Assembly: GCA_002753665.1 (NCBI GenBank)
Contig: PEAP01000006.1
Location: 5,680-69,679 of the forward strand
DNA from: Magnetococcales bacterium DC0425bin3
GTDB lineage: Bacteria; Pseudomonadota; Magnetococcia; Magnetococcales; DC0425bin3
DNA length: 64,000 nucleotides
Direction: 5' to 3'
Shown: positions 12,092 through 59,575 of the stretch, one piece after another
How the letters are laid out: every line of letters starts with the position of its first letter
Numbering within the stretch: the first letter of the stretch is position 1
The notes under the pieces: model-generated
Told to the model about the DNA's origin: nothing
The model's input: the letters and a program-made list of their open reading frames with translations, nothing else
The model's database searches: none
Made by a program: the position numbers and the translations under genes

Positions 12092-12107
12092 CTTCCCCAT
12101 CCATCGA
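12092..12107 (-). repeat. 16-nt fragment of the two-hairpin repeat family (copy L)
   Basis: CTTCCCCATCCATCGA matches the terminal CTTCCCCCATCCATC(A/G)A of the full copies and is nearly the reverse complement of the fragment at 38367-38382. Confidence 0.5.
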
Positions 12108-12134
12108 GGTTATGCAGCCATCAATCTATATGAT

Positions 12135-12163
12135 TTGCAAATTCTTTTTCCGAACTATATTAA
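12135..12163 (+). promoter_or_regulatory. candidate sigma70-type promoter in the only strongly AT-rich spacer
   Basis: TTGCAA (12135-12140), 17-nt spacer, TATTAA (12158-12163), inside the AT-rich stretch ~12100-12215 upstream of the SCP2/RND block. Confidence 0.3.
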
Positions 12164-12409
12164 AGTTTCAGAATGTTCTAATATTCGACTTCACTTGAAT
12201 TTGCAGGTGTGCTACCATGGACGGCGCAGGTGGGGAAGATCCGGCCCAATCCGGCCAAAAAAGACCGGCCGGGTTGACCGTAAACCCTGGAAAGGGGTTG
12301 GAAAGGTCAGCTAGACTGACAAATGGTGCCGTAACCGTATCCGCCGCCCAAGGGGAAAATCGATGGAGAATCGGGCTGGAACGGGCACCGCACATCGATC
12401 GTCGCGCTG

Positions 12410-12438
12410 CCGGCCCCCCAACGGGCCGGAGCGGTTTT
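12410..12438 (+). terminator. terminator-like hairpin inside the long leader (possible attenuator)
   Basis: CCGGCCC / GGGCCGG stem (12410-12416, 12423-12429), then AGCGG and TTTT (12435-12438). Lies ~45 nt before the SCP2 start. Confidence 0.3.
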
Positions 12439-12481
12439 CGTTACCATGCCGATCATCATCACGAAGGGGAGAACCATCATC

Positions 12482-12877: not shown

Positions 12878-12983
12878 GCCCTTCCCGGCAGGATCCGTTC
12901 CGGACCGGGGTCCTGGGACCCCGGTCCGGCGCACCGGTGGTCGGAGAGGGAGGCATCAGCATCGCATGAGAGGGTTTGATCCC

Positions 12984-14162
12984 ATGTCTTATCGCAAAGC
13001 GTCACTGCCGGCGTTGCCGCTGGCCCTGGCCGGTTGGCTGGTCGTTGCGGCTCCGGCCGCCGCGGCCGGCATTCCCGTGGCCAATCAGCCGACGGTCACC
13101 GTCGAGGCGGGGGCCATCGGCGCCACCACCACCCTGGGTGGGACGGTGGTGCCGTTCCGGGAGGTCTCCTTTTCCGCCCAACTGCCAGGCCGGGTGGAGT
13201 ATCTGGCCGGGGTGGAAGGGGACTGGGTCAAGAAGGGCAACGTGCTGGTGGCCCTGGATGATGATGACCTGCTGGCCAAACGCAACCAGATTCTGGCGGG
13301 CATGGAGACCGCCATGGCCGGCCTGCGCAATGCCCGGGTGCAGTTCGTCCGGCAGCAATACACCGGCCAGCCCCAGGGCATGAGCGGCATGGGCATGCCC
13401 AGCATGATGGACGAGGCGCTCACCCGCCCCATGGAAAACATGTTCAAGGGCGGGTCCAACGATGTCAATCGCCGGGCCCAGCTCTACAACCAGGGGGTGC
13501 AGATCGACCAGGCCCGCTGGCAGTACCAACAAGCCCGGGCCCAGCTCCAGGAATTGGACGCCCATATCCGGGATGCCCGCTCCATCGCGCCCTTCGACGG
13601 GGTGATCGTGCGCAAGACCGTGGAAGTGGGCGACACGGTGCAGCCCGGCATGCCCCTGCTGGCCTTCGCCGATACCGTCCACCTGCAGATCAAGGTGGAT
13701 GTGCCCGCACGCCTGATGCCCGGCATCAAGAAGGGCATGTCCATTCCGGCCAAGCTGGACGTGGGGGATACCCACATCGAGACCAAGGTCGCCCAGGTCT
13801 TCCCCATGGCCGACGCCCAACGCCACACCGTGACCATCAAGCTGGATCTGCCCCAGAACGCCCCCGGCGGACCGGGCATGTACGCGGAAGTGGTCATTCC
13901 CGACATCACCACCCCGGTGGAAAACCTGCCGGTGATTCCCAAGTCGGCGGTGCGCTGGAACGGCAGTCTGCCCGGAGTCTATGTGGTCACCGGCAAGGAC
14001 GAAGCGGAGCTGCGCATGGTTCGTCTGGGTGGGTTCGTCGACGGCAACAGCGTCAGCGTCCTCTCCGGCCTGAAGACCGGGGAGCGGATCCTGGCCGCGC
14101 CCCCCAACAACCAGACCGGCGACAGCAACGATAGCGGCGGCGGCCGTCCCCAGGCCGAGTGA
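12984..14162 (+). CDS. RND efflux periplasmic adaptor (membrane fusion protein, HlyD family)
   Basis: N-terminal signal/anchor (LPALPLALAGWLVVAAPAAAAG). Central alpha-hairpin segment (RRAQLYNQGVQIDQARWQYQQARAQLQELDAHI) flanked by beta-rich regions. Precedes the RND gene. ATG 12966 is an alternative start. Confidence 0.75.
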   Translation: MSYRKASLPALPLALAGWLVVAAPAAAAGIPVANQPTVTVEAGAIGATTTLGGTVVPFREVSFSAQLPGRVEYLAGVEGDWVKKGNVLVALDDDDLLAKRNQILAGMETAMAGLRNARVQFVRQQYTGQPQGMSGMGMPSMMDEALTRPMENMFKGGSNDVNRRAQLYNQGVQIDQARWQYQQARAQLQELDAHIRDARSIAPFDGVIVRKTVEVGDTVQPGMPLLAFADTVHLQIKVDVPARLMPGIKKGMSIPAKLDVGDTHIETKVAQVFPMADAQRHTVTIKLDLPQNAPGGPGMYAEVVIPDITTPVENLPVIPKSAVRWNGSLPGVYVVTGKDEAELRMVRLGGFVDGNSVSVLSGLKTGERILAAPPNNQTGDSNDSGGGRPQAE

Positions 14163-14244
14163 TACCACCCGGAATCCGCCCCCCCCCGGCCCCGCGTGCC
14201 GGGGGGGGGGCGGTCACAGGCTCTCATCGACAGGTTTCTGACCC

Positions 14245-19112: not shown

Positions 19113-19119
19113 GTCAACG

Positions 19120-19150
19120 GGCCGGGGCCATGGGCTCCGGCCCCTCTTTT
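19120..19150 (+). terminator. rho-independent terminator after the P/G-rich gene
   Basis: GGCCGGGGCC / GGCTCCGGCC stem (one G-U pair), 3-nt loop, followed by CCTCTTTT. Confidence 0.6.
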
Positions 19151-19993: not shown

Positions 19994-20001
19994 GAAGGTT
20001 C

Positions 20002-20661
20002 ATGGCTGCATCCGCGGGATTCAATCTCGAACGGGCATGGAAGCTTGGCGCCGCCACCCTGATCCTTCTGGCCGGAATCCCGGTCAGCCTGCCCGTTCCG
20101 GCCCGGGGAGACCAACAGCAGCCGGCCTTTTCCGCCCGGGTGGTCCGCAGCCATCCCTCGGATCGGGAGAAGAACTCCCAGGGCCACATGTATGTGGGAC
20201 CCCTGGGCATCCGCACCGAATCCACCGTGGGCGGTGAGGCCATTCATGTCATCTTTCAACGCCAACCGCCGAAGGCTCTGGTCCTGTTTCCGTCCCGCAA
20301 GGAGTACATGGAACAACCCGGAGCCGACAGCACCCCGCCGCCGCTCCCCGACCATCCGGACAGCCCCTGCCGCACCCATGATTCCTACCGCTGCCTCAAA
20401 AAGGGCCTGACCACCGTGGGCGGCCGTGACACCGAACATTGGGTGGTGACGGTCATCCCGCCCGGCGAGAAACCCCGGGATTCCCAGATGTGGATCGACC
20501 GTCGTCTGGGCATTGCCATTCGGGAAGCCTATCCGGACGGCTCTCTCGTGGAGCTGACCGACATCCGGGAGGCTCCCCAGGACCGGCAACTCTTCACCCT
20601 GCCGGAGGGGTATCGCCTGGTCACCCTGCCGGAGTCCGGCGCTCCTCCCGCGCCACCCTGA
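20002..20661 (+). CDS. hypothetical exported globular protein (possibly LolA-like/DUF4412-like fold)
   Basis: AGGAAGG RBS before ATG 20002. Signal-like N-terminus ...LGAATLILLAGIPVSLPVPARG. The beta-rich, non-repetitive mature part is the only ordinary-composition exported protein in this block. The fold assignment is a guess. Confidence 0.5.
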   Translation: MAASAGFNLERAWKLGAATLILLAGIPVSLPVPARGDQQQPAFSARVVRSHPSDREKNSQGHMYVGPLGIRTESTVGGEAIHVIFQRQPPKALVLFPSRKEYMEQPGADSTPPPLPDHPDSPCRTHDSYRCLKKGLTTVGGRDTEHWVVTVIPPGEKPRDSQMWIDRRLGIAIREAYPDGSLVELTDIREAPQDRQLFTLPEGYRLVTLPESGAPPAPP

Positions 20662-20673
20662 CCCGCCGCGTGA

Positions 20674-20744
20674 TTTCGATGGGTGGGGGAAGCCTCCCTC
20701 CTCCCTCCACCGATGCAAGTCGCAGTGCGACTTGCATCGGTAAC
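20674..20744 (+). repeat. two-hairpin ~70-bp repeat, full copy A
   Basis: TTTCGATGGGTGGGGGAAGCCTCCCTCCTCCCTCCACCGATGCAAGTCGC-AGT-GCGACTTGCATCGGTAAC, immediately after the stop of the 20002..20661 gene. Confidence 0.85.
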
Positions 20745-21154
20745 ATGACGACAACAATCGCCCGCCCCTGGCCCTCAGTTTGTAACATACCGGTCCGCCA
20801 GTGAGGGGAATTTTACATTAAACATCTTGTTATAGCGTGCCTTCTGCTCCAAAATGGCGTTTAACGTCCTCCCGTGAATACCTGCGGCAGCCACGTTGGT
20901 TTCGCGGTCCATCGGTGTCCGCGGTTGACCCCTGCGACCCGGACCCCAGACAGGGAGTTGTCGCGAGGGGTATCGAAGCACCATGGGTCTCCTTGTGCGG
21001 AATCCATCAGGTGTGATAAGAGGGCTTGAACCTGGAAAAAATGGATGGCTCCAGGGCAGGAGGGCAAACCATGGATGCCGCCAAGTCACATCGGCTCGGC
21101 ACGGTGGCGGAGGGGATCTTCCCAGCCACGAGGGTTTCCTGGCAGCAGCCACGC

Positions 21155-21763
21155 ATGAACGTGCGACGTTTCGGACACATCGTCTCCCTCGGCACCTTGG
21201 TCACAATGACCGGTTGGTCTTGCCATGCGACGGCGGGGGAGCCTTGGCAACAAACCATGGAGGCCGCCCAGCGGGCCGCTGCGAAACAGGGCTTGAGCGG
21301 CGATTCCCAGATGGGCCAACGCTTCGGACGTTTCATGAAGTCCTTCATGGACGAAATGGAATCCACCGACCCCGGAGTCGGCCACCCCCCCGGGAATCCG
21401 GAGGTGCCTCCAGGAATGCCGGACAATCGACCCCGTACCGAGGCCCGCCGGGCCCCCGAAGGGATATCCGGCCCCGCACGGATCCCGCAACCGCTTCCGC
21501 CCGGGCCGGGATACTGGGAGCCCACCCCCTGGGACAGCTCCCCCGGCCTTTGGGGTCCTGGAGGATGGAGTGCCTACGATTCCCCCGGCCGTCCCTATGC
21601 CGGAGCGGAAGGATATGGGTGGGGCGGTTCAGCCTACCGGGTTCCAAACCAGGGCTGGCCCGCCTGGAGCCCGTCGGGGTCCTGGGGCAATTATCGGGAT
21701 CCGCTGTTCGACAGCCCCGCGGGGCTGGGAACGGGTTGGGTTCCCCAGGGGTGGGATTGGTGA
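21155..21763 (+). CDS. secreted W/P/G-rich low-complexity protein (202 aa)
   Basis: Signal-like MNVRRFGHIVSLGTLVTMTGWSCHATA. C-terminal half is GYWEPTPWDSSPGLWGPGGWSAYDSPGRPYAGAEGYGWGGSAYRVPNQGWPAWSPSGSWGNY...GWVPQGWDW. The start is uncertain (ORF opens at 21026). Confidence 0.55.
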   Translation: MNVRRFGHIVSLGTLVTMTGWSCHATAGEPWQQTMEAAQRAAAKQGLSGDSQMGQRFGRFMKSFMDEMESTDPGVGHPPGNPEVPPGMPDNRPRTEARRAPEGISGPARIPQPLPPGPGYWEPTPWDSSPGLWGPGGWSAYDSPGRPYAGAEGYGWGGSAYRVPNQGWPAWSPSGSWGNYRDPLFDSPAGLGTGWVPQGWDW

Positions 21764-21908
21764 ACACCGGAACCCACATGGACTGTTCCGGGTTGGCGGT
21801 GTGGGAGGAGACCATTCTGCTGCCTCCCGCAAGGGATGATATACGGCCCTCAGTCTGATTTCAGCTATTAGATCAACCTTTTTTTAAGGAAAGCCAGAGG
21901 AGATCGAT

Positions 21909-22172
21909 ATGAAAAAGACCGCGCGCTTGTTGGCCATTGCCGCCCTTCTGGGCACTGCCATGACCCTCGCCGCCCCCGCGGATGCCTGGTGGGGACCCGG
22001 CTGGGGCAATGGCAACGGTTGGGGCAATGGCACCTTCAGCATGAACATGGGTGGCTGGGGCAATGGCTATGGCAATGGCTACGGCTATCCCGGCTACGGC
22101 GGCTGGGGCGGACCCGGCTATGGCGGCTGGGGCGGACCCGGCTACGGCGGTTGGGGCGGACCCTGGTGGTGA
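21909..22172 (+). CDS. small secreted G/W/Y-repeat protein 1 (87 aa), sulfur-globule-envelope-protein-like composition
   Basis: GAGGAG RBS. Sec signal MKKTARLLAIAALLGTAMTLAAPADA. Mature WWGPGWGNGNGWGNG...GYGGWGGPGYGGWGGPGYGGWGGPWW. Confidence 0.8.
   Translation: MKKTARLLAIAALLGTAMTLAAPADAWWGPGWGNGNGWGNGTFSMNMGGWGNGYGNGYGYPGYGGWGGPGYGGWGGPGYGGWGGPWW
22092..22163 (+). repeat. 3 x 24-bp coding tandem repeat (GYGGWGGP unit)
   Basis: GGCTA(C/T)GGCGG(C/T)TGGGGCGGACCC x3. The same unit recurs in the two downstream paralogs. Confidence 0.9.
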
Positions 22173-22236
22173 CGGTTGACCACCGCAATTCGTGCCATCC
22201 TCCTTTTTATCTGCAATGACGACGGAGATACAGAAA

Positions 22237-22506
22237 ATGAAAAAGTCCCTCGGTGTTCTCGCCATCGCGGCCCTGCTGGGTGGAGCCGCCATCCTCGCGA
22301 CCAATGACGCCTCCGCCTGGTGGGGACCCGGTTGGGGCAACGGCAACGGTTGGGGCAACGGCAACCTGAGCTTCAGCATGGGTGGCTGGGGCAACGGCTG
22401 GGGCAATGGCTACGGCTATCCCGGCTACGGCGGTTGGGGCGGACCCGGCTACGGCGGCTGGGGCGGACCCGGCTACGGCGGCTGGGGTGGTCCCTGGGGT
22501 TGGTAG
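22237..22506 (+). CDS. small secreted G/W/Y-repeat protein 2 (89 aa)
   Basis: GGAGA RBS. Signal MKKSLGVLAIAALLGGAAILATNDASA. Mature region is nearly identical in layout to paralog 1. Confidence 0.8.
   Translation: MKKSLGVLAIAALLGGAAILATNDASAWWGPGWGNGNGWGNGNLSFSMGGWGNGWGNGYGYPGYGGWGGPGYGGWGGPGYGGWGGPWGW
22423..22494 (+). repeat. 3 x 24-bp coding tandem repeat (GYGGWGGP unit)
   Basis: Same unit as 22092-22163. Confidence 0.9.
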
Positions 22507-22516
22507 TCAAACAGGC

Positions 22517-22538
22517 AGGGGGGGCTCACGCCCCCCTT
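22517..22538 (+). terminator. short G/C hairpin after paralog 2
   Basis: GGGGGG-CTCACG-CCCCCC followed by TT only. Weak U-tract. Confidence 0.3.
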
Positions 22539-22642
22539 GACTGCAATGCCAACTGGCATGGTTGGGGGAATTGTCTCCCACCCGCGTGCCGCACCCACTT
22601 CCGGCAACGGCTGCGTGCGGCAACTGCGCAAAGGGTTTCAAC

Positions 22643-23020
22643 ATGAAAAAGACGCTCGGCATGCTGGCCATCGCCACCCTTTTGGGTGGTGCAGCCATGG
22701 TGACCTCGAATGAAGCTTCGGCCTGGTGGGGCGGTGGTCCCGGCTACTGGGGCGGACCCGGCTACGGCGGTTGGGGCGGACCCGGCTACGGCGGTTGGGG
22801 TGGCGGGCCTGGCTACGGCGGTTGGGGCGGACCCGGCTACGGCGGTTGGGGTGGCGGGCCTGGCTATTGGGGCGGCGGTGGTGGCCCCTATGGCTATGGC
22901 GGCGGACCCTATGGCTATGGCGGCGGGCCTGGCTACTGGGGCGGTGGTGGACCCAACGGCGCTCCTCCAGCGACGGCTCCCACCGGGGAGAAAGAAACCA
23001 AAACCGACTCCGGTAATTGA
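22643..23020 (+). CDS. small secreted G/W/Y-repeat protein 3 (125 aa) with charged C-terminal tail
   Basis: Signal MKKTLGMLAIATLLGGAAMVTSNEASA. Mature WWGGGPGYWGGPGYGGWGGPGYGGWGGGPGYGGWGG...GGGPYGYGGGPYGYGGGPGYWGGGG, then NGAPPATAPTGEKETKTDSGN. Confidence 0.8.
   Translation: MKKTLGMLAIATLLGGAAMVTSNEASAWWGGGPGYWGGPGYGGWGGPGYGGWGGGPGYGGWGGPGYGGWGGGPGYWGGGGGPYGYGGGPYGYGGGPGYWGGGGPNGAPPATAPTGEKETKTDSGN
22742..22940 (+). repeat. array of 18/24/27-bp coding repeats (GYWGGP / GYGGWGGP / GYGGWGGGP / GPYGYGG units)
   Basis: Direct reading of 22742-22861 shows alternating 24- and 27-bp units. More degenerate units follow. Confidence 0.8.
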
Positions 23021-23040
23021 TCCTTCGGGGCATTGATGCG

Positions 23041-23070
23041 GGGGGGCGGTTGCGGCCGCCTCCCGTTTTG
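23041..23070 (+). terminator. rho-independent terminator after the G/W/Y gene triplet
   Basis: GGGGGGCGG / CCGCCTCCC stem (one G-U pair), loop TTGCGG, then GTTTTG. Confidence 0.65.
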
Positions 23071-23090
23071 CCTATCCTCTTTCCATAGGA

Positions 23091-23136
23091 CCGATGAACG
23101 TCGTGTCGCGACGTGCATCGGTGGAGGGTGAAGGGT
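23091..23136 (-). repeat. two-hairpin repeat, degenerate partial copy B
   Basis: CCGATGAACGTCG-TGTC-GCGACGTGCATCGGTGGAGGGTGAAGGG. The hairpin-2 module plus GGTGGAGGG is retained. The GGAGGCCTCC module is lost. Confidence 0.6.
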
Positions 23137-23235
23137 GTTTGAGCCAATCCAGCCTGGCCAGTCCCGGTTTCCGGACCCGGTGCCATGGTTTGGAAACCGC
23201 CGGCCTTACCGGCATCCCGGTTGGAACCACATGCC

Positions 23236-23904
23236 ATGATTACCCTGATCGGCAACCTGAAAGGCGGTTGCGGCAAAAGCACCGTGACCTTCAATCTGGC
23301 GGTTTGGCTGGCCAAGCGGAAGCGGCAGGTGGTTACCTTCGATCTGGATCCCCAGGCCACCCTGAGCGATGTGGTGGATGTGCGCCGGGAAGAGGGTGTG
23401 ACTCCCGCCATCACCGTGTTTCGCCCGGAAAGCGACCCCGGCAAGGTCTTCAAGGAACATTCCGCGGGCGAGGTTCTGGTGGATGTCGGCGCTTCCAACC
23501 TCTGGGCCATGCGGCAGGCCATCGCCATGGCCGACCGGGTGTTGATTCCGGTGCCGCCCAGTCAGGCGGATGTCTGGTCCACCCAGCGGTTCCTGAACAT
23601 CGTCGAGGAAACCGTCGCCGGCAAGAAACGCCCCGAGACCCTGGTCTTCGTCAACCGTGCCGATACCCACCCGGGATTGACGGAATCCGACGAAACCGAA
23701 CAGGCCCTGGCCGCCCTGTCCGGGGTGGCGATCCTGGACGCCCGTATTTCCCAAAGAACCATCTACCGCCGTTCCTTCAGCGAGGGCCGGGCTGTCTTCG
23801 AACTGTCCCCCTCCAGCAAGGCCGCGGAAGAGTTCATCAATCTGGCCAAGGCCCTGTATCCGGACCTGGCCCAGCCCGCCAAAAGCGGCAACAAGAAAAA
23901 GTGA
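23236..23904 (+). CDS. orphan ParA/MinD-family P-loop ATPase
   Basis: Deviant Walker A GNLKGGCGKST, then FDLDPQ and VLVDVG motifs. 222 aa with a short basic C-terminal tail (AKSGNKKK). No parB, parS or min genes nearby. Confidence 0.85.
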   Translation: MITLIGNLKGGCGKSTVTFNLAVWLAKRKRQVVTFDLDPQATLSDVVDVRREEGVTPAITVFRPESDPGKVFKEHSAGEVLVDVGASNLWAMRQAIAMADRVLIPVPPSQADVWSTQRFLNIVEETVAGKKRPETLVFVNRADTHPGLTESDETEQALAALSGVAILDARISQRTIYRRSFSEGRAVFELSPSSKAAEEFINLAKALYPDLAQPAKSGNKKK

Positions 23905-23919
23905 GGGAGAATACGGCCC

Positions 23920-24612
23920 ATGACCGATCGACCGGTTCAACATCCCGGCGCGGATGCCGACGGTGGCGGAAACCCGTCCTCCCCCATGCCCCAGCGCGGC
24001 GTCAACATCATCCCGCCCGTCGGCACCCACAAGGAGTGCGGCAACTGCTCGGCCATGGTGCTGGACCAGTTCGCCAAGAGTTTCGACAAAAGCGCCCGCC
24101 GCTGGGAACTGGTGGTCTACCCGTCCCTGTTCGCCTTCATCATCCTGGCCATGTACGGATTTTTCCTGATCTACAGCCTCACCCAGGACATCCGGATCAT
24201 GTCCCACTCCATCGACCCGCAGATGGGGCGCAACATGGGCTCGTTGTCTTCCAACATCGGCAGTTTGTCCAACAATATCGAGTTGATGTCCAATTATCTC
24301 GAATATATCAGCGACAACATGGAAACCATGTCGGTGGACATGCAGACCATGGCCGAGAACATCGATACCATGACCGACAGCGTTTCCGGCATGAGCGGCA
24401 ATGTCAAGCAGATGGCCGGCACCATGACCGAAATGTCCGGGCGGGTCAGTGAAATGGCCGTCAAGCTTGATACCCTGGGACCCATGACCGCCAACGTGGC
24501 CATCATGTCCCAGGCCATGCGCGTCATCACCGGGTCCATGAACCGCATGGGATACGACATGAACAACGCGGCCCGGCCCATGAGCTTCATCAACCGGTTC
24601 ATGCCCTGGTAG
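23920..24612 (+). CDS. bitopic membrane protein with periplasmic Met-rich 18-heptad coiled coil ('methionine zipper')
   Basis: N-terminal ~65 aa carry an ECGNC (CxxC) motif and a K/R cluster. One TM follows (VVYPSLFAFIILAMYGFFLIYSL). From residue 102 there are 18 uninterrupted 7-residue repeats beginning M (L/I/V in a few). Ends ...RFMPW. Confidence 0.7.
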   Translation: MTDRPVQHPGADADGGGNPSSPMPQRGVNIIPPVGTHKECGNCSAMVLDQFAKSFDKSARRWELVVYPSLFAFIILAMYGFFLIYSLTQDIRIMSHSIDPQMGRNMGSLSSNIGSLSNNIELMSNYLEYISDNMETMSVDMQTMAENIDTMTDSVSGMSGNVKQMAGTMTEMSGRVSEMAVKLDTLGPMTANVAIMSQAMRVITGSMNRMGYDMNNAARPMSFINRFMPW

Positions 24613-24675
24613 TCGGCCACATGGCCAGTCCGGTTTCTGTGAATATTGTTTGATTCCGATCACGGGAGAAAATTG

Positions 24676-25392
24676 ATGTCCGCGACACGCAAAACCAGTT
24701 CCATCCTCTCCGCCGCCGTCCTGACCCTGGCCATGACCTTTTCCGCCGCCGCCATGGCCGAGGACAAGGCCGCCACCGTCCCGGTCACGCCGCCCACCAG
24801 CCCCCAGGATCTGCAAGAACGCATCCAGGACCGGGTCGGCAATTACTGGCAGAGCATCCAGAGCAGCCACGATGCCTGGCAGCGCCAGCATACCCTCGGA
24901 CAGACCGCCACCGAGCGGGACCGGGAAACCGGTCAGTCGGCCCGGGAAATGGCCGAACAGACCCGCATGCTGGATTGGCAGAACCAGCAGCAGGCCTGGA
25001 CCAACGCCGCCCAGCAGCTCCAGAACACCCAGCAGCGCCAGCAGGAGAACAATCTGAAACTCCAGGAAGCCCTGATGGCCTACCGCCACGAACAGGAGCG
25101 CATCAACCTGGAACATCGCAAGGCGATGGTGAGCAACACCACCGCCTACCAGCAGGGCAGCCTCAACAACGCCGTCATGCGCCGTCAGAATAATCTGATG
25201 ACCAGCACCTCCGCGGTCAACAACGATCTGTGGGCCAGCCGGCAGGCCATGATGAACCACATGGCCCGTCAGCGCGCCTGGCTGCAGCAGCGCACCGGCG
25301 CTCCCGTGAACGAAGCCATTCTGCCTCCCGTCGCTCCCGGCAGTGAACCCGCGGCCCCTCCGGCGGCGGAAGCAGCCAAGCCGGCGCAATAA
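24676..25392 (+). CDS. secreted Q/N-rich helical protein (238 aa)
   Basis: GGGAGA RBS. Signal MSATRKTSSILSAAVLTLAMTFSAAAMA. Mature part is Q/N/R/E-rich and helix-prone (WQNQQQAWTNAAQQLQNTQQRQQENNLKLQEAL...), with a P/A tail. Confidence 0.65.
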   Translation: MSATRKTSSILSAAVLTLAMTFSAAAMAEDKAATVPVTPPTSPQDLQERIQDRVGNYWQSIQSSHDAWQRQHTLGQTATERDRETGQSAREMAEQTRMLDWQNQQQAWTNAAQQLQNTQQRQQENNLKLQEALMAYRHEQERINLEHRKAMVSNTTAYQQGSLNNAVMRRQNNLMTSTSAVNNDLWASRQAMMNHMARQRAWLQQRTGAPVNEAILPPVAPGSEPAAPPAAEAAKPAQ

Positions 25393-25393
25393 C

Positions 25394-25462
25394 TTTGATG
25401 GATGGGGGAGGCCTCCCTCCACCCTCCACCGATGGAAGTCGCGCAGCGACTTCCATCGGTAA
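25394..25462 (+). repeat. two-hairpin ~70-bp repeat, full copy C (closest to consensus)
   Basis: TTTGATGGATGGGGGAGGCCTCCCTCCACCCTCCACCGATGGAAGTCGC-GCA-GCGACTTCCATCGGTAA, starting 2 nt after the stop of the Q-rich gene. Confidence 0.9.
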
Positions 25463-25473
25463 ATGATTCGAAC

Positions 25474-25515
25474 TTCTGATGGATGGGGGAGGCCTCCCTC
25501 CACCTTCCATCGGTG
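25474..25515 (+). repeat. two-hairpin repeat, copy D with hairpin 2 collapsed
   Basis: TTCTGATGGATGGGGGAGGCCTCCCTCCACC-TTCCATCGGTGA. The left arm and loop of hairpin 2 are deleted. Confidence 0.75.
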
Positions 25516-25539
25516 AGCGAGTCGTCCAGATCGAATCCA

Positions 25540-25569
25540 GGGCGGATTGCCATGCAATCCGCCCTTTTT
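25540..25569 (+). terminator. strong rho-independent terminator closing the + strand block
   Basis: 11-bp perfect stem GGGCGGATTGC / GCAATCCGCCC, loop CAT, then TTTTT. Confidence 0.8.
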
Positions 25570-25621
25570 CATTGGGGGATATCCCCACCACACCCGGCCA
25601 GGCGATCGCCCGCCGGGACGG

Positions 25622-26566
25622 TCAATGGGCGGGTACGAAGCCTTGCGCGACCAGGATGGCCTGGGCCTCGGGATCCAGGGTCCAGTCCAGGAAAGTCTTC
25701 AGGTCGCCCTGGGGTTGGCCCAGGGTGTAGAGATACAGGGGATGGATCAAGGGATAGGAACGGTCCCGGATCCGCTCCGGGGTGGGGGTGATACAGGCCT
25801 CTCCGGATTGTTCCGCCAGGCACACCGCCCGCACCCCGGAAGTGAGGGAGGACAGGGAAACATAACCGATGGCGCAAGGATCCTCCGCCACCCGGTTCAC
25901 CAGGCCCGGATCATCCCGGGTGAAAGTCAGGCGTCGGGACATGTCTGCGAGATGCGCGCCGAACAGCCGGGCGCGGAAGATGCCATAAATCCCCGCCTTG
26001 GTGGTGCGGCTCAGCGGATGGATCTGTTGCGCCATGCAGCCGGGCAGGGGATTGTCCAGGGCGGTCCAGCGGGCGATGCGCCGGTGTTTTCGGTAGATGC
26101 CGGCCAACTGATCCAGATCCAGGGCCTGGATGCCATTGTCCCGGTGAACGATCACCGCCACCGCATCCCATCCCACCACCTGACCCTGGGGCTTGGCAAA
26201 GCCGCTGGCCACCGCCAATTGGGCTTCCCACTCCTGCATGGTGCGGGAGGTGGCGGCGACATGGCCATGGCCGTTGATCAGGGCCGCAATCCCCTTGACC
26301 GAGCCCCCCCCCTGAATATGCAGGCCGATGTCGGGATGACGTTCGTGGAAGGGCTTGACCCAGGCCTCCAACACCGGCTTCAGGGTTTCGGACCCCCGGA
26401 TCCACAGGGCGGTGTCCTCCTCCCCCAGGGCCCATGCCGACCCACAGCCGCTCATCCAGGTCAGGATCGCCACCAGCCATGCCTTACCGTGGAAGTCGCG
26501 TTGCGACTTCCATCGGTGGAGGGTGGCGGGAGGCTTCCCCCATCCATCAAAGTTACAGGTTCCCAT
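25622..26566 (-). CDS. PstS-family (phosphate-binding-protein-like) periplasmic lipoprotein, orphan
   Basis: PBP-fold sequence (...IRGSETLKPVLEAWVKPFHERHPDIGLHIQGGGSVKGIAALINGHGHVAATSR...). Lipobox-like LTWMSGC. No pstCAB nearby. The only usable in-frame starts (ATG 26566 or TTG 26578) lie upstream of repeat copy E, which is read through in frame. Confidence 0.65.
   Translation of the reverse strand: MGTCNFDGWGKPPATLHRWKSQRDFHGKAWLVAILTWMSGCGSAWALGEEDTALWIRGSETLKPVLEAWVKPFHERHPDIGLHIQGGGSVKGIAALINGHGHVAATSRTMQEWEAQLAVASGFAKPQGQVVGWDAVAVIVHRDNGIQALDLDQLAGIYRKHRRIARWTALDNPLPGCMAQQIHPLSRTTKAGIYGIFRARLFGAHLADMSRRLTFTRDDPGLVNRVAEDPCAIGYVSLSSLTSGVRAVCLAEQSGEACITPTPERIRDRSYPLIHPLYLYTLGQPQGDLKTFLDWTLDPEAQAILVAQGFVPAH
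26484..26553 (-). repeat. two-hairpin ~70-bp repeat, full copy E, inside the 5' end of the PstS-like ORF
   Basis: Plus strand reads TTACCGTGGAAGTCGC-GTT-GCGACTTCCATCGGTGGAGGGTGGCGGGAGGCTTCCCCCATCCATCAAAGT. Confidence 0.85.
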
Positions 26567-26671
26567 TCGGTCGCTCAATCTCACTCTCCTCCGCTGCCAC
26601 CAATCTGACCGATTTGGCAACCACAGTTCAAGAGGTGTTCATGCACCCTGGTCAGGGGATGTTCGCCGCCC

Positions 26672-35527: not shown

Positions 35528-35648
35528 CTGCAGAGAATTTATTGGGTTTTTTCGCTACGGATGGGTATGATGCCAGAGTGGGAAATTCCTCTTTTCATCC
35601 GTCACTGATCTCCGGGCTGGGACTTCCGGACAAGGCTGTGTGGATGCC

Positions 35649-38363: not shown

Positions 38364-38366
38364 TCT

Positions 38367-38382
38367 CGATGGATGGGGGAAG
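38367..38382 (+). repeat. 16-nt fragment of the two-hairpin repeat (copy F)
   Basis: TCGATGGATGGGGGAAG lies between the convergent FecR-like and amidotransferase genes. Confidence 0.5.
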
Positions 38383-45780: not shown

Positions 45781-46821
45781 TCAGGACTTGAACAGCCGGT
45801 TCATCAGGCTCTGCTTCTTGCGCGAGCCACCGTAGCCCCCATAGCCGCCATAGCCCCCCCCGTAGCCGCCGTAGCCCCCATAGCCCCCATAGCCGCCGTA
45901 GCCGCCGTAGCCCCCATAGCCCCCATAGCCCCCATAGCCATAGCTGTAATAGCTGCCCCCGCCGCGATTCTGGGTCTTGTTGAGAATCAGCCCGACGATG
46001 TCCAGGTTTTCCAACTGATTCAAGGCATCCTTGACGGCGAACTGGGGCGTGCGTTCGGCTTCCACCACCATGACGATCTGCCCCATGTCCCGAGCCAACT
46101 CCCGGGCCTCGGTGGTGACCAGCAGGGGCGGCGAGTCGAACACTACGATCCGGTCCCGGCCGCTCTTGGCCAGGCTTTCCAGCAACTGGCGCATGCTGTC
46201 ACTGGCCAGCAGCTCCGTGGCATGGTGATGGCGCCGTCCCGAGGGCAGCAGCATCAGCTTGGGAATGTTGGTGCGGATGAGGACCTCGGCGAAGTTTTCC
46301 ACCTTGCCCAACAGGTAGTCGATCAGTCCCTTCTGGGCCTTGAACCCCAGAATGCGGCTGACGGAAGGTTTCGCCACATCGCCATCCACCAGCAGCACCG
46401 TGCTGTCCCGTTCGGCGGCCAGGCTCATGGCCAGATTGATGGCGGTGAAGGTCTTGCCCTCCTTGGGGAAGGCGCTGGTCACCATGATCATGTTGGCGTT
46501 GGCAACCTTGCGCAGGCCCTTGCCGATGGCGTTGAGCAGCAGGGGTCGTTTGATGATCCGGAACTCCTCCGCCACCGTGCCCCGCCCCACGTCCGGCGTG
46601 AGGATGCCCTTGGATTTGAGCTGCACGAAATCCAGGGTCACCTTCTTGCGCACGTCGCGCTCGGTGATGTCTGGGATGGCCTTGATCCGGGCTTTGTCCG
46701 TGGCGCTCCGGGTGGTGGGTGGCTCTTCCTGGATCGGTTGCAGGTCCTCCAGCTCGTCAGGCTCGAACTCCGGCAGGATCTCCTCCCGGGTGGTTCTCCG
46801 TCTCACGTCCGGCTGTGGCAT
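45781..46821 (-). CDS. BY-kinase (exopolysaccharide tyrosine autokinase, PEP-CTERM-locus type) with hyper-expanded (GGY)n tail
   Basis: Walker A-like SAFPKEGKT, Walker A' LLVDGD, Walker B VVFDSPP. C-terminus is SYYSYGYGGYGGYGGYGGYGGYGGYGGYGGYGGGYGGYGGYGGSRKKQSLMNRLFKS. Confidence 0.85.
   Translation of the reverse strand: MPQPDVRRRTTREEILPEFEPDELEDLQPIQEEPPTTRSATDKARIKAIPDITERDVRKKVTLDFVQLKSKGILTPDVGRGTVAEEFRIIKRPLLLNAIGKGLRKVANANMIMVTSAFPKEGKTFTAINLAMSLAAERDSTVLLVDGDVAKPSVSRILGFKAQKGLIDYLLGKVENFAEVLIRTNIPKLMLLPSGRRHHHATELLASDSMRQLLESLAKSGRDRIVVFDSPPLLVTTEARELARDMGQIVMVVEAERTPQFAVKDALNQLENLDIVGLILNKTQNRGGGSYYSYGYGGYGGYGGYGGYGGYGGYGGYGGYGGGYGGYGGYGGSRKKQSLMNRLFKS
45826..45954 (-). repeat. 9-bp (GGY codon-triplet) tandem repeat tract encoding the tyrosine cluster
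   Basis: Plus strand reads ...GTAGCCCCCATAGCCGCCATAGCC...; about 12 consecutive GGY units, 15 Tyr in 43 aa. Confidence 0.9.
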
Positions 46822-50146: not shown

Positions 50147-50217
50147 TTACCGATGAAAGCCGCGGAGCGGCTTTCATCGGTGGAGGGTGGAGGGAGGCCT
50201 CCCCCATCCATCAAAGT
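50147..50217 (-). repeat. two-hairpin ~70-bp repeat, full copy H (first of a tandem pair)
   Basis: TTACCGATGAAAGCCGC-GGA-GCGGCTTTCATCGGTGGAGGGTGGAGGGAGGCCTCCCCCATCCATCAAAGT. Confidence 0.9.
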
Positions 50218-50286
50218 GACCGTGAAAGTCGCGGAGCGGCTTTCATCGGTGGAGGGTGGAGGGAGGCCTCCCCCATCCATCAAAGT
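50218..50286 (-). repeat. two-hairpin ~70-bp repeat, full copy I (second of the tandem pair)
   Basis: GACCGTGAAAGTCGC-GGA-GCGGCTTTCATCGGTGGAGGGTGGAGGGAGGCCTCCCCCATCCATCAAAGT, directly abutting copy H. Confidence 0.9.
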
Positions 50287-53624: not shown

Positions 53625-53627
53625 GGG

Positions 53628-54497: not shown

Positions 54498-54500
54498 GGC

Positions 54501-55868: not shown

Positions 55869-55960
55869 GCATCAACTGTACTGCATCCATTTCCATGAAC
55901 ACAAATTTGTCTGGCAGCCCGTTGATAAATGGGCTGCTGGCGGGGCAGGGATGCCCCTCC

Positions 55961-55991
55961 GGAATCAACGGATTGGAAATCCGTTGATTCC
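55961..55991. promoter_or_regulatory. perfect 14-bp inverted repeat (candidate operator) in a divergent promoter region
   Basis: GGAATCAACGGATT-GGA-AATCCGTTGATTCC lies between the decarboxylase gene (-) and the membrane protein gene (+). Confidence 0.4.
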
Positions 55992-56047
55992 GTGAGGGAA
56001 CCGCAAGCTCTGCTTGAAGGCTTTATGGCCCCTTCAGGATCTGTTAA

Positions 56048-56117
56048 CTTTGGATGGAGGGGAGATGCCTCCCTCCACCCTTCACCGATGAAAGCCGGTT
56101 TCCGGTTTCCACGGTAA
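56048..56117 (+). repeat. two-hairpin ~70-bp repeat, copy J
   Basis: CTTTGGATGGAGGGGAGATGCCTCCCTCCACCCTTCACCGATGAAAGCCGG-TTT-CCGGTTTCCACGGTAAC. Confidence 0.8.
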
Positions 56118-56222
56118 CTTCAATAGGATTGGGGAGGGGATGAAGGTCGCATCACGACGTTCACGGTCACCTCCATCGGAACGATGCTATCGGCACTCCC
56201 ACGGATTCCTGACCATTTGCCC

Positions 56223-57599
56223 ATGGAACGTCCCCGAATCCCTGCCCTGTTGCCCATCGTACTGCTGCTACTCCAGGCGGCCCTGCTCCACTGGCTCTAC
56301 GAGCGGTCCGGCTTCGCCCCCAAGAGCTATCCGGACACCATCGATTACACCTTCTTCGCCCAGCAGACCTGGACCGAGCGCCTCACCTCCCTGCGCACCA
56401 TCGGCTACCCAATCTTCCTGTATCTCCATTCCCTGGTGGCCGACCAGTTCCGCCTGGTGCCACTGTGGCATTTTCTGCTCCATATCGCCACCGTGGTGGT
56501 GTTCCAGTCGTCCCTGCTGCAATTCGGCTTCCGGACCTGGACCGCCTTTCTGGCCGCCAGCGCGCTGGTTTACGCCAGTATCCTGCGCTATTTCGGTCAT
56601 GCGATCCTCACCGACGCGCCCGGCACCGCCCTGATCATCCTGCTCACCGCCCTGCTGCTGTTCTCCCTCACCCGACCCCGAAGCCGCTGGTGGCTGGCGG
56701 GGTTGGGGGTGGGGCTGTTCGTCTCCTATCAGGTACGGCCGGCCAATCTCTACCTGGTGGCCCTGATCCCCCTGTTGGGGGGGATGCTCTACCCTCTGAC
56801 TCCCGGCAATCCGGCCACCCGCTGCTGGACCACCCCCGACTTTCGCCGCCATCTGCAACGCCTGACCCTGGTGTCCCTGGTGCCGTTTCTGCTGTTCTGC
56901 GGCCTGCGCTGGGTGACGGTGGGCCATTTTGGCCTGGTGTCCTTCGGCGGTCACAACGCCATCGGGGTGCTGGCCTCCCTGGTGCAGGCCGAGACAGTGG
57001 ATCAGCTGGATCCCGAGGTCCGGCCCCTGGCCCGGGCCATCGCTGCGGAACGGGAGCGGCGGGGCATGGAATGGCCGTTTTCCCGCCTGGGCTGGATCCG
57101 TTACGAAATCTGGTTCAAGGAGTACAACCCCAACTCCCACGAGGTGGCACTGCCGGCGGCCCTGAAACTGGCCGGGGGCAGCCGGGTGGAGGCCAACCGC
57201 ATGATGACCAGGCTGTCCTGGGCCATCCTGTTCCAGCATCCGGATCTCTACGCCCGCTGGGTGGTGGCCTCCTTCGCCGAGTCGCTCTGCGGACTGGTGC
57301 GCCGCGAGGCCACCCTGCAGGCCACCGCGCTGCTGCTGCTGCTGGCCTTCACCGCCGCCCGCATGCGCCCCCGTCTCCCGGAGGCCGCCGTTCGACAGCA
57401 GGAGCGCGAGACCACGGTGCTGCTGTTGATCAGCCTGCTGTTTTTCCTCAGCGGCACCCTGCTGGTGGTGCTGGTGGAGCAACCCCTGGAACGCTACATC
57501 TTCAGCACGGCCGTCTTCATTCCTTCATTGCTGGCCGCGGTCCTATCCCACCAGCTGACCCGCCTGCTGGCCCGCAGCCCCACCGCCGGAGATCAGTGA
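56223..57599 (+). CDS. polytopic integral membrane protein, possibly GT-C-fold (ArnT/PMT-like) glycosyltransferase or polymerase
   Basis: About 10 or more hydrophobic segments with one larger soluble loop (~56950-57250). Function is inferred from context only. Start MERPRIPALLPIVLLL at 56223; ATG 56184 is an alternative. Confidence 0.45.
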   Translation: MERPRIPALLPIVLLLLQAALLHWLYERSGFAPKSYPDTIDYTFFAQQTWTERLTSLRTIGYPIFLYLHSLVADQFRLVPLWHFLLHIATVVVFQSSLLQFGFRTWTAFLAASALVYASILRYFGHAILTDAPGTALIILLTALLLFSLTRPRSRWWLAGLGVGLFVSYQVRPANLYLVALIPLLGGMLYPLTPGNPATRCWTTPDFRRHLQRLTLVSLVPFLLFCGLRWVTVGHFGLVSFGGHNAIGVLASLVQAETVDQLDPEVRPLARAIAAERERRGMEWPFSRLGWIRYEIWFKEYNPNSHEVALPAALKLAGGSRVEANRMMTRLSWAILFQHPDLYARWVVASFAESLCGLVRREATLQATALLLLLAFTAARMRPRLPEAAVRQQERETTVLLLISLLFFLSGTLLVVLVEQPLERYIFSTAVFIPSLLAAVLSHQLTRLLARSPTAGDQ

Positions 57600-59509
57600 G
57601 GCACCACAGGTGGCTCGGCAGCCCCCAGTCCCGCCTGCCACATGTGGAACATCACCAGGCCCAGCAGGCGCAGGCCATTGTCCCGCTCCATGGCCAGATG
57701 TTCCCGCCACAGCCGGTCCACCTCCTCCGGCACGAAGAACTCCCCGGCCAGGGCCGCCCGGGTCGGGTCGGCGAACAGACGATCCCGGGTCTCGGCCAGC
57801 CAATGGGCGATGGGGGCGTTGAAACCCTCCTTGGGCCGGTTGAGAATCCGCTCCGGCAGGCAGCCCTTCTGACTGGCCTTGAGCAGGTATTTTCTCTTCA
57901 GACCCTTCATCTTCAGCGCCACGGGCAGAGCCGCGGCGAACTCCACCAGCCGGTAGTCCAGGAACGGTGCCCGGGCCTCCAGGGAATGGGCCATGGTGGT
58001 GCGGTCCACCTTGACCAGGATGTCGTCGGCCAACCAGGTCTTGATGTCCACATACATGGCCTGGTCAAGGTAGTGGCAATCGGCCACCTCGCGGAAATGC
58101 CGCTCGAAATGGATAAAAGGGTCCGCCGCGGCCACCGCTTCTCGCCAGGGAGGCCGCACCAGGGCCTGTTTTTCCGGCTCGGAGAAAATGCAGCGCCAGC
58201 TATAGTGGGCGCGCTGGGGACTGTGGCGGTGACCGGCCAGGAACTGGCGGATCTTGTAGTCGAAGCCGATCTTGTCGTAGGTCACCGGCACCAGGCGGTT
58301 CACCGCCCGCTCCAGCAGCCCGATCAGCCAGCCCGGCAGCCGGCGGGTGCGCTGGTGGATCCAGTCGGCGGTGTAGGTGGTGTAACCGGCGAACAGCTCG
58401 TCGGCCCCGTCCCCGGACAGGGCCACGGTCACCTGCTCCCGGGCGAAGGCCGACAACCGCACCATGGGAAAAATGGACGTATCGGCGAACGGTTCATCCA
58501 TCTGGTAAGCCAACGCCGGGAGGTTGACGGCGAATTCGGCGTCGATCAGGCGGCTGTTGAAGGTCACGCCCAGATGGGCGGCCACGCTTTGGGCTTCGTG
58601 GAGTTCGCAGTAGGTCCGCTCGGGAAACCCGATGGAAAAGGTGCGCACCTCCGACGGTTTGCCCAGGCGGCTCATGGCGGCGATGATGGTGGAGGAATCG
58701 ATGCCGCCGCTGAGAAAGCCCCCCAGGGGCACATCGCTTACCAGCCGCAGGCGCACCGAGTCTTCCAGCAGGGCATTGAACGCCTCCACCGCCTCCCTCT
58801 CGGAGGCGAAACGGTTCTTGCGACGGAAATGCTCCGCCAGGTCCCAATAGCGGTCGAGGACCGGCCCCCCCTCCCGCCGCCAGACCAGACAATGGGCCGG
58901 CGGCAGTTTTTTCACCCCGGCCAGGATGGCGGCCCCGGTCAGGGTATAGTTGAGGGACAGGTAATGGCTCAGGGCCACGGGATCCACCTGGCGCGGCACC
59001 TCGGGATCCTCGATCAGGGCCTTGAGTTCGCTGGCGAACACCACTCCGCCGTCGGGCAACGGGTAGTAGAACAGCGGCTTCTTGCCCAACCGGTCCCGGG
59101 CCAGAAACAGGGAGCGGGCCTCCCGGTCCCAGAGGGCGAAGGCGAACATGCCGTTGAAGCGTTCCAGGCAGGCAGTGCCCCAGCGCTTGTAGCTCTCCAG
59201 GATCACCTCGGTGTCGGTCCGGGTCAGGAAACGATGGCCGAGATCCTCCAGGGTGCGGCGGATCGGGGCGAAGTTATAGATTTCGCCGTTGAAGACGATC
59301 CAATAGCGGCCGCTGTGATCGACCATGGGCTGGTTGCCGGCCTCCCGCAAGTCGATGATGGCCAGACGCCGGTGCCCCAGGCCGATGTCGCCCTCCAGAA
59401 AGAGGCCTTCGGCGTCTGGCCCCCGATGCCGCATCCGCCGGGTCATGCGCCCGATGGTCGCCCCATCGGGTGGTCGCCCCCACGAGAATCGGCCCGCGAT
59501 TCCACACAT
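57593..59509 (-). CDS. asparagine synthase (glutamine-hydrolysing) family amidotransferase, second paralog
   Basis: True N-terminus MCGIAGRFSW (Ntn Cys), PP-loop SGGIDSSTI. The 16 upstream codons of ORF 57593..59557 translate repeat copy K and were rejected. Confidence 0.85.
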   Translation of the reverse strand: MCGIAGRFSWGRPPDGATIGRMTRRMRHRGPDAEGLFLEGDIGLGHRRLAIIDLREAGNQPMVDHSGRYWIVFNGEIYNFAPIRRTLEDLGHRFLTRTDTEVILESYKRWGTACLERFNGMFAFALWDREARSLFLARDRLGKKPLFYYPLPDGGVVFASELKALIEDPEVPRQVDPVALSHYLSLNYTLTGAAILAGVKKLPPAHCLVWRREGGPVLDRYWDLAEHFRRKNRFASEREAVEAFNALLEDSVRLRLVSDVPLGGFLSGGIDSSTIIAAMSRLGKPSEVRTFSIGFPERTYCELHEAQSVAAHLGVTFNSRLIDAEFAVNLPALAYQMDEPFADTSIFPMVRLSAFAREQVTVALSGDGADELFAGYTTYTADWIHQRTRRLPGWLIGLLERAVNRLVPVTYDKIGFDYKIRQFLAGHRHSPQRAHYSWRCIFSEPEKQALVRPPWREAVAAADPFIHFERHFREVADCHYLDQAMYVDIKTWLADDILVKVDRTTMAHSLEARAPFLDYRLVEFAAALPVALKMKGLKRKYLLKASQKGCLPERILNRPKEGFNAPIAHWLAETRDRLFADPTRAALAGEFFVPEEVDRLWREHLAMERDNGLRLLGLVMFHMWQAGLGAAEPPVVPH

Positions 59510-59529
59510 AACCAAGCGCCTTTCCAGAT

Positions 59530-59575
59530 TTTGATGGATGGGGGAAGCCTCCCCCATCCATCAGAGTTTCATCGG
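59530..59575. repeat. two-hairpin repeat, copy K (hairpin-1 module converted to a perfect 13-bp palindrome)
   Basis: TTTGATGGATGGGGGA-AGCC-TCCCCCATCCATCAGAGTTTCATCGG, ~20 nt upstream of the amidotransferase start codon. Confidence 0.75.

Follow-up and report, generated by a model that had tools for sequence, protein, structure and literature searches.

Repetitive extragenic palindromes (REPs) are single palindromes of 20-40 bp that carry an unpaired GTAG or CGTC tag; head-to-tail dimers are negligible among the CGTC REPs, and in many families most of the units are paired in opposite orientation (PMC3733652). REPs and the REP-associated tyrosine transposases (RAYTs) are known in E. coli, Pseudomonas and Stenotrophomonas (PMC3733652, PMC8266576), and TnpA-REP recognises bulged imperfect palindromes (PMC8266576). 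In the REPINs of Pseudomonas fluorescens, two inverted copies of the same REP form one long hairpin (PMC3116915, PMC3337134). The IS200/IS605 insertion sequences, in turn, have no terminal inverted repeats (TIRs) and make no target-site duplication (TSD), bear hairpins at their ends, insert 3' of a tetra- or pentanucleotide, and are accompanied by palindrome-associated transposable elements (PATEs), which consist of the ends only (PMC7290912, PMC3201880). Here, we describe a family of short two-hairpin repeats in a 64,000-nucleotide stretch of DNA from Magnetococcales bacterium DC0425bin3, an uncultured bacterium of magnetotactic type (contig PEAP01000006.1; the whole stretch is called the window below). 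In our judgement, these are probably lineage-specific, non-autonomous mobile repeats resembling REPs or miniature inverted-repeat transposable elements (MITEs), copied by a transposase that is encoded elsewhere in the genome.

The window contains 13 copies or remnants of one ~69-nt two-hairpin repeat, all of them intergenic. Seven are full, one is full length with a decayed core (B), four are shortened (D, I2, J and K), and one is a fragment of the 5' end (L). The full unit, 68-69 nt long, reads 5'-TTTGATGGATGGGGGA(G/A/T)GCCTCCCTCCACCCTCCACC-GATG(G/C/A)AAG(T/C)CGC-NNN-GCG(A/G)CTT(C/G/T)CATC-GGTAA-3'. Its ends are conserved, TTTGATGGATGG on the 5' side and CCATCGGTAA on the 3' side, and the 5' end is usually preceded by (T/G)AAC. 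Module 1 is an imperfect G/C hairpin of ~11 pairs with conserved bulges, while module 2 is a stem of 14-15 bp with a 3-nt loop.

How does such a unit compare with the systems described above? Like REPs and the bacterial interspersed mosaic elements (BIMEs), the repeats are short, G+C-rich, imperfect and bulged palindromes, extragenic and lineage-specific, present in tens to hundreds of copies, with units that are clustered and mostly placed after genes or between co-directional genes, and they are plausibly processed as folded single-stranded DNA. In particular, a bulged palindrome of the module-1 type fits what TnpA-REP recognises (PMC8266576). High copy number and extragenic position, both typical of REPs, are found here as well, with 13 of 13 copies intergenic and ~70-300 copies suggested by a groundwater metagenome run (X1, see below). 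In other respects, however, the unit departs from that template. Namely, at 68-69 nt, with two different hairpins in fixed order, it does not have the size of a REP (PMC3733652), which a single module would fit; the flanks of the hairpins (TTTGAT/GGATGG, CTCCACC/GATGG and CCATC/GGTAA) show neither GTAG nor CGTC on either strand; and, in place of the inverted pairing of REPs, BIMEs and REPINs, all three pairs in the window and all four junctions in X1 run head to tail. What is more, no RAYT gene was seen among the window's open reading frames (ORFs) that were scanned or annotated, a set that leaves ~12970-14240 and 43950-44620 uncovered. REPINs, which a single-copy Y1 transposase is thought to move in trans, share with the family a similar length, hairpin-forming repeats and non-autonomy, but the two modules are unrelated in sequence here and fold separately.

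The structure of a PATE is matched, with a hairpin near each end, no long TIR, no clear TSD, a conserved tetranucleotide 5' of the left end, and shortened forms that keep the ends. That said, the unit is far shorter than a PATE-like sequence of ~271 nt (PMC7290912), has no relative of TnpA or TnpB in the same set of ORFs, and shows no orientation bias in the window (7 + and 5 -, which is weak evidence given the small sample). The inverted repeat of at least ~10 bp that one would look for in a MITE is missing as well, only 6 nt (GATGGA/TCCATC) being present, while the conservation of the ends in the internally deleted forms D, J and K is that of a non-autonomous transposon. Finally, pneumococcal BOX and neisserial Correia (NEMIS) repeats are likewise small, structured, intergenic and mosaic, as seen here in D and J, which have no module 2, and in I2, whose module 1 is truncated, but their sequences are unrelated to that of the present unit. 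In Correia elements the inverted ends measure 26 nt and go with a TA duplication, the modules of BOX are longer and its mode of movement is not known, and repeats of this type can alter mRNA processing when co-transcribed with the genes beside them. An earlier note on this DNA, made from the sequence alone, had called the repeats REP/BIME or MITE-like: a dispersed intergenic two-hairpin family they are, but the defining characters of REPs and REPINs fail in them, and the likeness to REP/BIME is one of analogy only.

Copies and structure of the unit

The palindromic core, GGGAGGCCTCCC, occurs nine times with at most one mismatch, as opposed to 1.3 occurrences expected, and none of 100 shuffles reaches nine; one core match, at 62318, lies inside a gene and was discarded as chance. 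The exact 11-mer of the 5' end, GATGGATGGGG, is found nine times in the window, K and L among them, and the 3' end, TTCCATCGGTAA, 12 times with at most two mismatches, where 2 are expected. In a repeat search, the copies fall into the direct families D3, D5, D6 and D8 and the inverted pairs I1-I17, at 78-92% identity. A covariance model (R1), built from the seven full copies and run over the 64-kb window with filters off, recovers these seven at 63-101 bits (E = 1e-20 to 1e-34), D at E = 6e-13, B at 1e-8 and J at 1e-6. No further convincing copy was found in the window in this way, the weak matches being one in coding sequence (34406) and one to a different, single-copy hairpin (55953).

All 12 copies listed in the earlier note are real, every one lying at, or no more than 3 nt from, the place given for it, but a thirteenth, I2 (56119-56169, +), had been overlooked. 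B, taken to be partial, is actually full length with a decayed module-1 core, whereas D and J, also called partial, and K, called a 16-nt fragment, are indeed shortened, but internally, with both termini kept; the other fragment, at 38367, is L, a 5' terminus only. The copies are the following (bits are those of R1).

Copy A, 20675-20743, + strand: full unit, 91.8 bits; module 2 perfect, with C-G at the variable position; 13 nt past the stop of the + gene 20002-20661, in sense orientation, in its 3' untranslated region (UTR).
Copy B, 23088-23156, - strand: full length with decayed module-1 core, 29.8 bits; module 2 of the ACGACGTTCA 3'-arm subfamily with one compensated pair, C-G replacing A-T; antisense to the flanking + genes.
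Copy C, 25394-25462, + strand: full unit, 98 bits; the 5' flank TAAC includes the TAA stop of gene 24676-25392.
Copy D, 25474-25516, + strand: short form of 5' terminus, module 1 and 3' terminus (TTCCATCGGTGA), 41.7 bits; 11 nt past C; a canonical terminator distinct from the repeat (25539-25565, then a T run) comes after it.
Copy E, 26484-26551, - strand: full unit, 85.2 bits; sense, between two - genes, with 10 nt separating its 3' end from the downstream start of the PBP_like_2 gene (25622-26473).
Copy F, 41449-41516, + strand: full unit, 83.5 bits; antisense to the two flanking - glycosyltransferase genes, occupying the whole gap between them and abutting the upstream TGA stop (41517-41519).
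Copy G, 50147-50215, - strand: full unit, 101.1 bits; the 3' unit of the head-to-tail pair H-G, placed between divergent genes, 76 nt upstream of where a sugar-transferase gene starts (50071).
Copy H, 50217-50284, - strand: full unit, 62.7 bits; 5' member of the dimer H-G, its 3' end GGTCAC doubling as the 5' flank of copy G.
Copy I, 56049-56117, + strand: full, diverged unit, 75.1 bits; in the divergent region upstream of gene 56184-57599.
Copy I2, 56119-56169, + strand: truncated module 1 and module 2 of the B-type subfamily, 9.1 bits (module-2 part only); abuts copy I head to tail across GGTAAC.
Copy J, 59530-59578, unoriented: 5' arm, its perfect complement (together a 32-nt palindrome, TGATGGATGGGGGAAGCCTCCCCCATCCATCA) and 3' terminus TTTCATCGGCAA, 22-24 bits; between two - genes, 22 nt upstream of the likely MCG start of an asnB-like gene.
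Copy K, 12070-12108, - strand: 39-nt mini form, both termini (CTCGATGGATGGGG ... GCCATCGTTCAA) around a small palindrome, GGAAGATCTTCC.
Fragment L, 38365-38382, + strand: 5' terminus only (CTCGATGGATGGGGGAAG); in a 31-nt convergent gap, one base past the TAA stop (38361-38363) of gene 35640-38363.

These 13 copies are spread over 10 intergenic gaps, in both orientations and with unrelated flanks. They stand past the stops of + genes (A, C/D, L), between co-directional genes (B, E, F, J, K) and in two divergent promoter or leader regions (H-G, I-I2). Where a locus can be oriented relative to the neighbouring gene, five are sense (A, C/D, E, G/H, I/I2) and two antisense (B, F), a split that is not significant. 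By a tally of the gene calls, intergenic DNA makes up ~7% of the window and yet houses all 13 copies. The neighbouring genes are unrelated to one another and include those for efflux, ParA-like and PBP-like proteins and polysaccharide (exopolysaccharide, EPS) synthesis. Roughly 9 of the ~21 gaps of at least 60 nt are occupied, both inside and outside the EPS locus (38-64 kb), while tightly packed genes have no copies between them. The claimed enrichment in that locus is therefore not specific to it: the element follows the available intergenic space and not the EPS locus as such.

The fold of the whole unit has an energy of ~-45 kcal/mol for RNA and ~-26 kcal/mol for DNA, either strand folding equally well, and for typical copies the fold has z = -6.6 to -8.5 relative to shuffles, both hairpins being far more stable than shuffled sequence. 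The two modules are conserved in different ways, module 2 mainly in structure and module 1 in sequence. In module 2, 4 of the 10 cleanly aligned pairs have changed on both sides, in seven cells, with 92% of the cells paired, and one pair occurs in three states (G-C, C-G and A-T), slightly more than the earlier count of at least three compensated base pairs. In 500 shuffles, the count of cells with both sides changed, the percentage of paired cells and the covariation score never came up to the observed values, and the count of pairs with both sides changed did so in six. Module 1, on the other hand, has no double-sided change in any of its 11 pairs, its sequence itself being conserved, bulges included; its one variable position, G/A/T at the apex, is uncompensated and is therefore probably part of the loop.

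The shortened forms D, J and K have lost different internal parts, and all of them have kept 5' GATGGATGG and 3' CCATCGG(T/C)AA-like termini. Copy D forms one hairpin, in which its termini are paired. That both ends survive while different internal parts are lost would be expected of a non-autonomous transposable element.

One practical consequence of this anatomy concerns gene calling. Namely, five of the six reading frames are open in the consensus unit (translation of copy C), which invites false ORF calls. A search of a protein collection with the five open-frame translations gave 190 candidates sharing words with them, none of which scored.

Copy number and distribution

The groundwater metagenome run X1 contains the same strain, its unique contigs differing from the window at 0-1 positions and having a word depth of 2-4. 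Module 1 reaches a summed word depth of 175-188 in this run, contributed by 26-29 different contigs with diverse loose ends, and this summed core depth is 50-100 times that of the unique contigs. Taken naively, the depth ratio gives ~70 copies; if the true coverage of X1 is ~0.6x, as inferred from the 12-15% of sampled words that are present, on the assumption that the assembler discards words seen once, the estimate becomes ~300. The genome thus probably has ~70-300 copies. The perfect palindrome of the J type is single-copy in X1, where only the unique contig matched, and at a variant threshold of 1% too few variants are listed across the copies for an analysis of covariation. Searching RNA and DNA runs, we found the sequence in this one groundwater metagenome, while two sister runs from the same study had 0 of its words and no RNA run turned up.

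A protein of GCA_015233965.1 (contig JADFWZ010000016.1) matches the window's DNA polymerase I at 100% identity, and the next relatives of this polymerase, at 64-66% identity, all belong to metagenome-assembled genomes (MAGs) of Magnetococcales. Contig JADFWZ010000016.1 is identical to the window over 22.7 kb that include copies A-F, and a further 13.5 kb differs in one 24-nt block only. The covariance-model scan that had been suggested was run on the window and on the polA regions of relatives: the window copies were recovered, whereas no copy was found by R1 in ~104 kb around polA from five other Magnetococcales, among them Magnetococcus marinus MC-1 and two MAGs with accessions adjacent to GCA_015233965.1. 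The same neighbourhood of the window has six.

Searches further afield gave a similar picture. An 18-nt core pattern matched at least 34 loci across genome contigs; among those listed, 33 are chance matches in unrelated phyla, and only one (L008), in another Magnetococcales MAG, is loosely similar, with a single hairpin and 13.7 bits. In the JGI metagenomes, a 25-nt pattern had one match, a chance one in a coding region of 73% G+C, and there were 0 matches in IMG/VR and none in plasmids. Rfam, applied to the whole window, reported nothing at gathering thresholds, the G/H dimer hitting only hairpin-shaped microRNA families below threshold, and literature searches directed at Magnetococcales or at this assembly gave no result. 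As far as these collections go, the family appears to be restricted to one lineage.

A side observation concerns one of the relatives. In M. marinus MC-1 (locus L043, 3920-8570), the counterpart of window positions 25622-27814 has two extra genes between the PBP_like_2 gene and a conserved 381-aa gene, one for an SMC_N/AAA_23 protein (757 aa) and the other a 71-aa ORF; the window is without both and has copy E in the gap.

How the family may have spread

On the mobile-repeat reading, the unit would be copied into new intergenic sites by a transposase acting in trans. The preferred candidate is an HUH/Y1 single-strand transposase (a RAYT or a TnpA of the IS200/IS605 type) that would recognise the folded hairpin at each end and insert the unit beside a short target such as TAAC, in which case the element's own 3' end would recreate the target and head-to-tail dimers would follow. 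Transcribed copies would come to lie mostly in 3' UTRs, operon spacers and 5' leaders, where their stable hairpins would probably act as incidental barriers to 3' exonucleases or as translation-coupled modulators. We infer mobility from the pattern of the copies alone, and the type of enzyme and any effects at the RNA level are put forward in the same spirit.

The evidence for the ends and the target is as follows. Of 12 copies, 9 have AAC or AAT immediately 5' of the unit, with a T before it in 7 of the 10 tallied, and where dimers abut, this tetranucleotide also forms the 3' end of the unit before it, the dimers having one (T)AAC/TCAC junction in common. All three adjacent pairs in the window (H-G, I-I2 and C-D) are arranged head to tail, and so are the four distinct junction contigs in X1, one of which (...CACGGTCAC followed directly by TTTGATGG, at depth 20) has the same junction as H-G. 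Inverted similarity between the two ends extends over only 6 nt, GATGGA/TCCATC. When the seven full copies are checked for target duplications, TAA/TAAC flanks C, E and I on both sides and AAT flanks F on both sides, while the flanks of A, G and H do not match; the same letters recur across copies, and no clear copy-specific duplication is seen among these few copies. Because the inverted ends share just these 6 nt, no duplication is clearly specific to a copy, the 5' tetranucleotide is conserved and the right end recreates it, an HUH/Y1 enzyme seems slightly more likely than a DDE enzyme. Such traits agree with what has been described for the IS200/IS605 elements (PMC7290912, PMC3201880). The recreation of the tetranucleotide by the right end would also explain the tandem arrays.

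That said, several points speak against a mobile family of this kind. First, no transposase or Y1 domain is present among the window ORFs scanned or annotated, in agreement with what the earlier note had stated about RAYT and transposase genes. Second, there is no empty site or insertion polymorphism to be seen, the two assemblies being identical over the 22.7 kb with A-F and the coverage of X1 being too low to reveal one. Third, orientation is mixed, 7 + against 5 - with J unoriented, albeit in a small sample, whereas a replication-strand bias is usual for elements of the IS200/IS605 type; GC skew is negative in 13 of 16 bins of the window, with no switch. Fourth, a DDE enzyme with a preference for TAA could equally account for the flanks of C, E and I, where TAA on either side would be a 3-bp duplication; the X1 contigs start matching at or within TAAC, and TAAC as a target is indistinguishable here from TAAC as a part of the element. 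Fifth, the estimate of copy number derives from assembler word depths at very low coverage and assumes no other carrier in the sample. Finally, the covariation comes from nine related copies and may partly reflect inherited subfamilies.

Might the family instead be a classical MITE, moved by a DDE transposase that binds the GATGGA ... TCCATC ends and duplicates a TAA/TAAC target? Such an enzyme would account for the termini kept in D, J and K, those of D pairing together, for the flanks of C, E and I (TAA on either side) and of F (AAT on either side), and for the strictly intergenic position and high copy number of the units. We nonetheless consider it unlikely, since the inverted termini share only 6 nt and the flanks, instead of being matched copy by copy, are near-uniform across the family, with mismatches at A, G and H. 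What is more, no DDE transposase is found in the same set of ORFs, and at 69 nt the unit is far below the 100-400 nt usual for MITEs.

A second alternative is that of a host cis-element, be it an RNA that stabilises mRNA or modulates translation, or a site for a nucleoid or regulatory protein, which was spread long ago and is now immobile like many of the REPs and BIMEs of E. coli. The question turns in part on the covariation of module 2, which the earlier note took as selection on structure and not on sequence. While double changes do maintain the stem of module 2, module 1 has none at all, and covariation alone is no proof of selection on structure. The mismatched copies (F, H, I and I2) resemble mixtures of subfamily arms: in F, the 5' arm is of the A type and the 3' arm of the C type, and in H, a 5' arm of the G type is joined to a different 3' arm. 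In addition, intrastrand template switching in quasi-palindromes can equalise arms without any selection. Given the small number of related copies, the mixed arms, template switching and the fact that both strands fold equally well, the covariation does not prove selection on an RNA. A host element would, of course, be in keeping with the very stable folds, with the five of seven orientable loci that are sense to the neighbouring gene, and with the four loci (A, C, F and L) that lie 0-13 nt past a stop codon, a distance at which REPs have been reported to lower translation in E. coli. However, the 5:2 split in orientation is not significant, the adjoining genes are unrelated (efflux, ParA-like, PBP-like, EPS synthesis), the decayed or truncated copies B, I2, K and L argue against uniform selection, and syntenic sites in relatives are without the element. 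All in all, we regard this alternative as improbable.

The third alternative, namely local segmental duplication or gene conversion confined to this region, with no genome-wide family, could produce the adjacent pairs C-D, H-G and I-I2 by tandem duplication, but it is practically refuted by the unrelated flanks at 10 loci and by the many more copies in the metagenome of the same strain (26-29 core contigs with a summed depth 50-100 times that of unique contigs), and with it falls the single recent segmental duplication that the earlier note had named as a refuting condition.

Four known types of element were rejected altogether: integron attC sites, as the ends are direct (TAAC ... GGTAAC) and not inverted RYYYAAC/GTTRRRY, there are no cassettes and no integrase, and the neighbours are housekeeping and EPS genes in both orientations; CRISPR arrays or satellite DNA, as the copies are dispersed with irregular spacing; known structured RNAs, for which there is no Rfam match; and intrinsic terminators. 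As to the last, neither hairpin is followed by a T run, the following sequence being GGTAA(A/C/G/T), and a terminator scan of 20000-27000 reported none of the five elements there while it did report the separate terminator at 25539-25565 after C and D; the lack of a T run, together with this canonical terminator downstream, tells us that the elements are not terminators themselves.

Returning to the mobile-repeat reading, a bolder version of it deserves mention, although we hold it to be doubtful. Namely, the family could represent an undescribed minimal substrate of single-strand transposition, with two end hairpins in ~69 nt and no cargo, which an HUH/Y1 enzyme of Magnetococcales would insert 3' of TAAC. 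If so, a self-targeting 3' end would build head-to-tail arrays, an organisation unlike that of REPs, BIMEs and REPINs, and this would be the smallest two-ended "peel-and-paste" element known. In more sober terms, the repeats belong to a routine class in bacteria with undemonstrated function, and it is the family itself that is new. If confirmed genome-wide, it would be an undescribed family of structured intergenic repeats for Magnetococcales, whose architecture, falling outside the REP, REPIN and MITE templates, could help to define the minimum size of an HUH-type mobile substrate. It also puts very stable hairpins close beside the codons at which polysaccharide, transport and other genes stop or start, and metagenome assemblies made from short reads are apt to break at such repeats.

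Other features of the window

Some further observations concern sequence close to the copies. Right after copy A, a stretch of ~1.2 kb (20744-21908) has no called gene and no ORF with coding-like G+C content at third positions, and includes a patch rich in A+T around 20780-20840; a gene in decay, a long leader and an RNA missed by annotation are all conceivable here. The divergent region that houses I and I2 also contains a perfect 14-bp hairpin, CGGAATCAACGGAT-TGGAA-ATCCGTTGATTCCG (55960-55992), which has no relation to the family and occurs only once in the window. Two AsnB-like paralogues (38395-40293 and 57593-59508) share a 219-nt stretch at 71% identity (family D4 of the repeat search); fragment L lies just past the 3' end of the first of these genes, and copy J upstream of the start of the second.

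Three tandem genes at 21909-23020 encode signal-peptide proteins of 87, 89 and 125 aa with Gly/Trp/Tyr repeats of the GWGGPGYGG type; no Pfam match is recorded for any of them, and the third, which was scanned, gave 0 families. A similar GY-rich repeat region occurs in a ParA-like/AAA_31 gene of the polysaccharide locus (45781-46821), and the Gly/Trp/Tyr repeats gave spurious joints in the matching of metagenome contigs.

The one block in which the window differs from the otherwise identical contig JADFWZ010000016.1 lies at 7186-7209, inside a - strand aldo/keto-reductase ORF (6673-7818), where the window has ATACACTCTTTTCAGACGTGTGCT and the other contig CTTGTCGTTGGGCGAGATGATGAA. The version in the window resembles what we take to be joined pieces of Illumina TruSeq adapter (ACACTCTTT / TTCAGACGTGTGCTC), and the block is probably an adapter or assembly artefact in the assembly of the window.

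Finally, several of the chance matches to the core pattern, in Fibrobacter and related MAGs (L003 at 6748-6815, L019, L023 and L027), have in common a longer motif, TTTGGATGGGGGAAGCCTCCCCC, with a second hairpin after it. This motif may be a separate hairpin repeat or terminator of Fibrobacteria and a rumen proteobacterium. L003 reaches 18 bits with R1, but it had been selected for containing the core.

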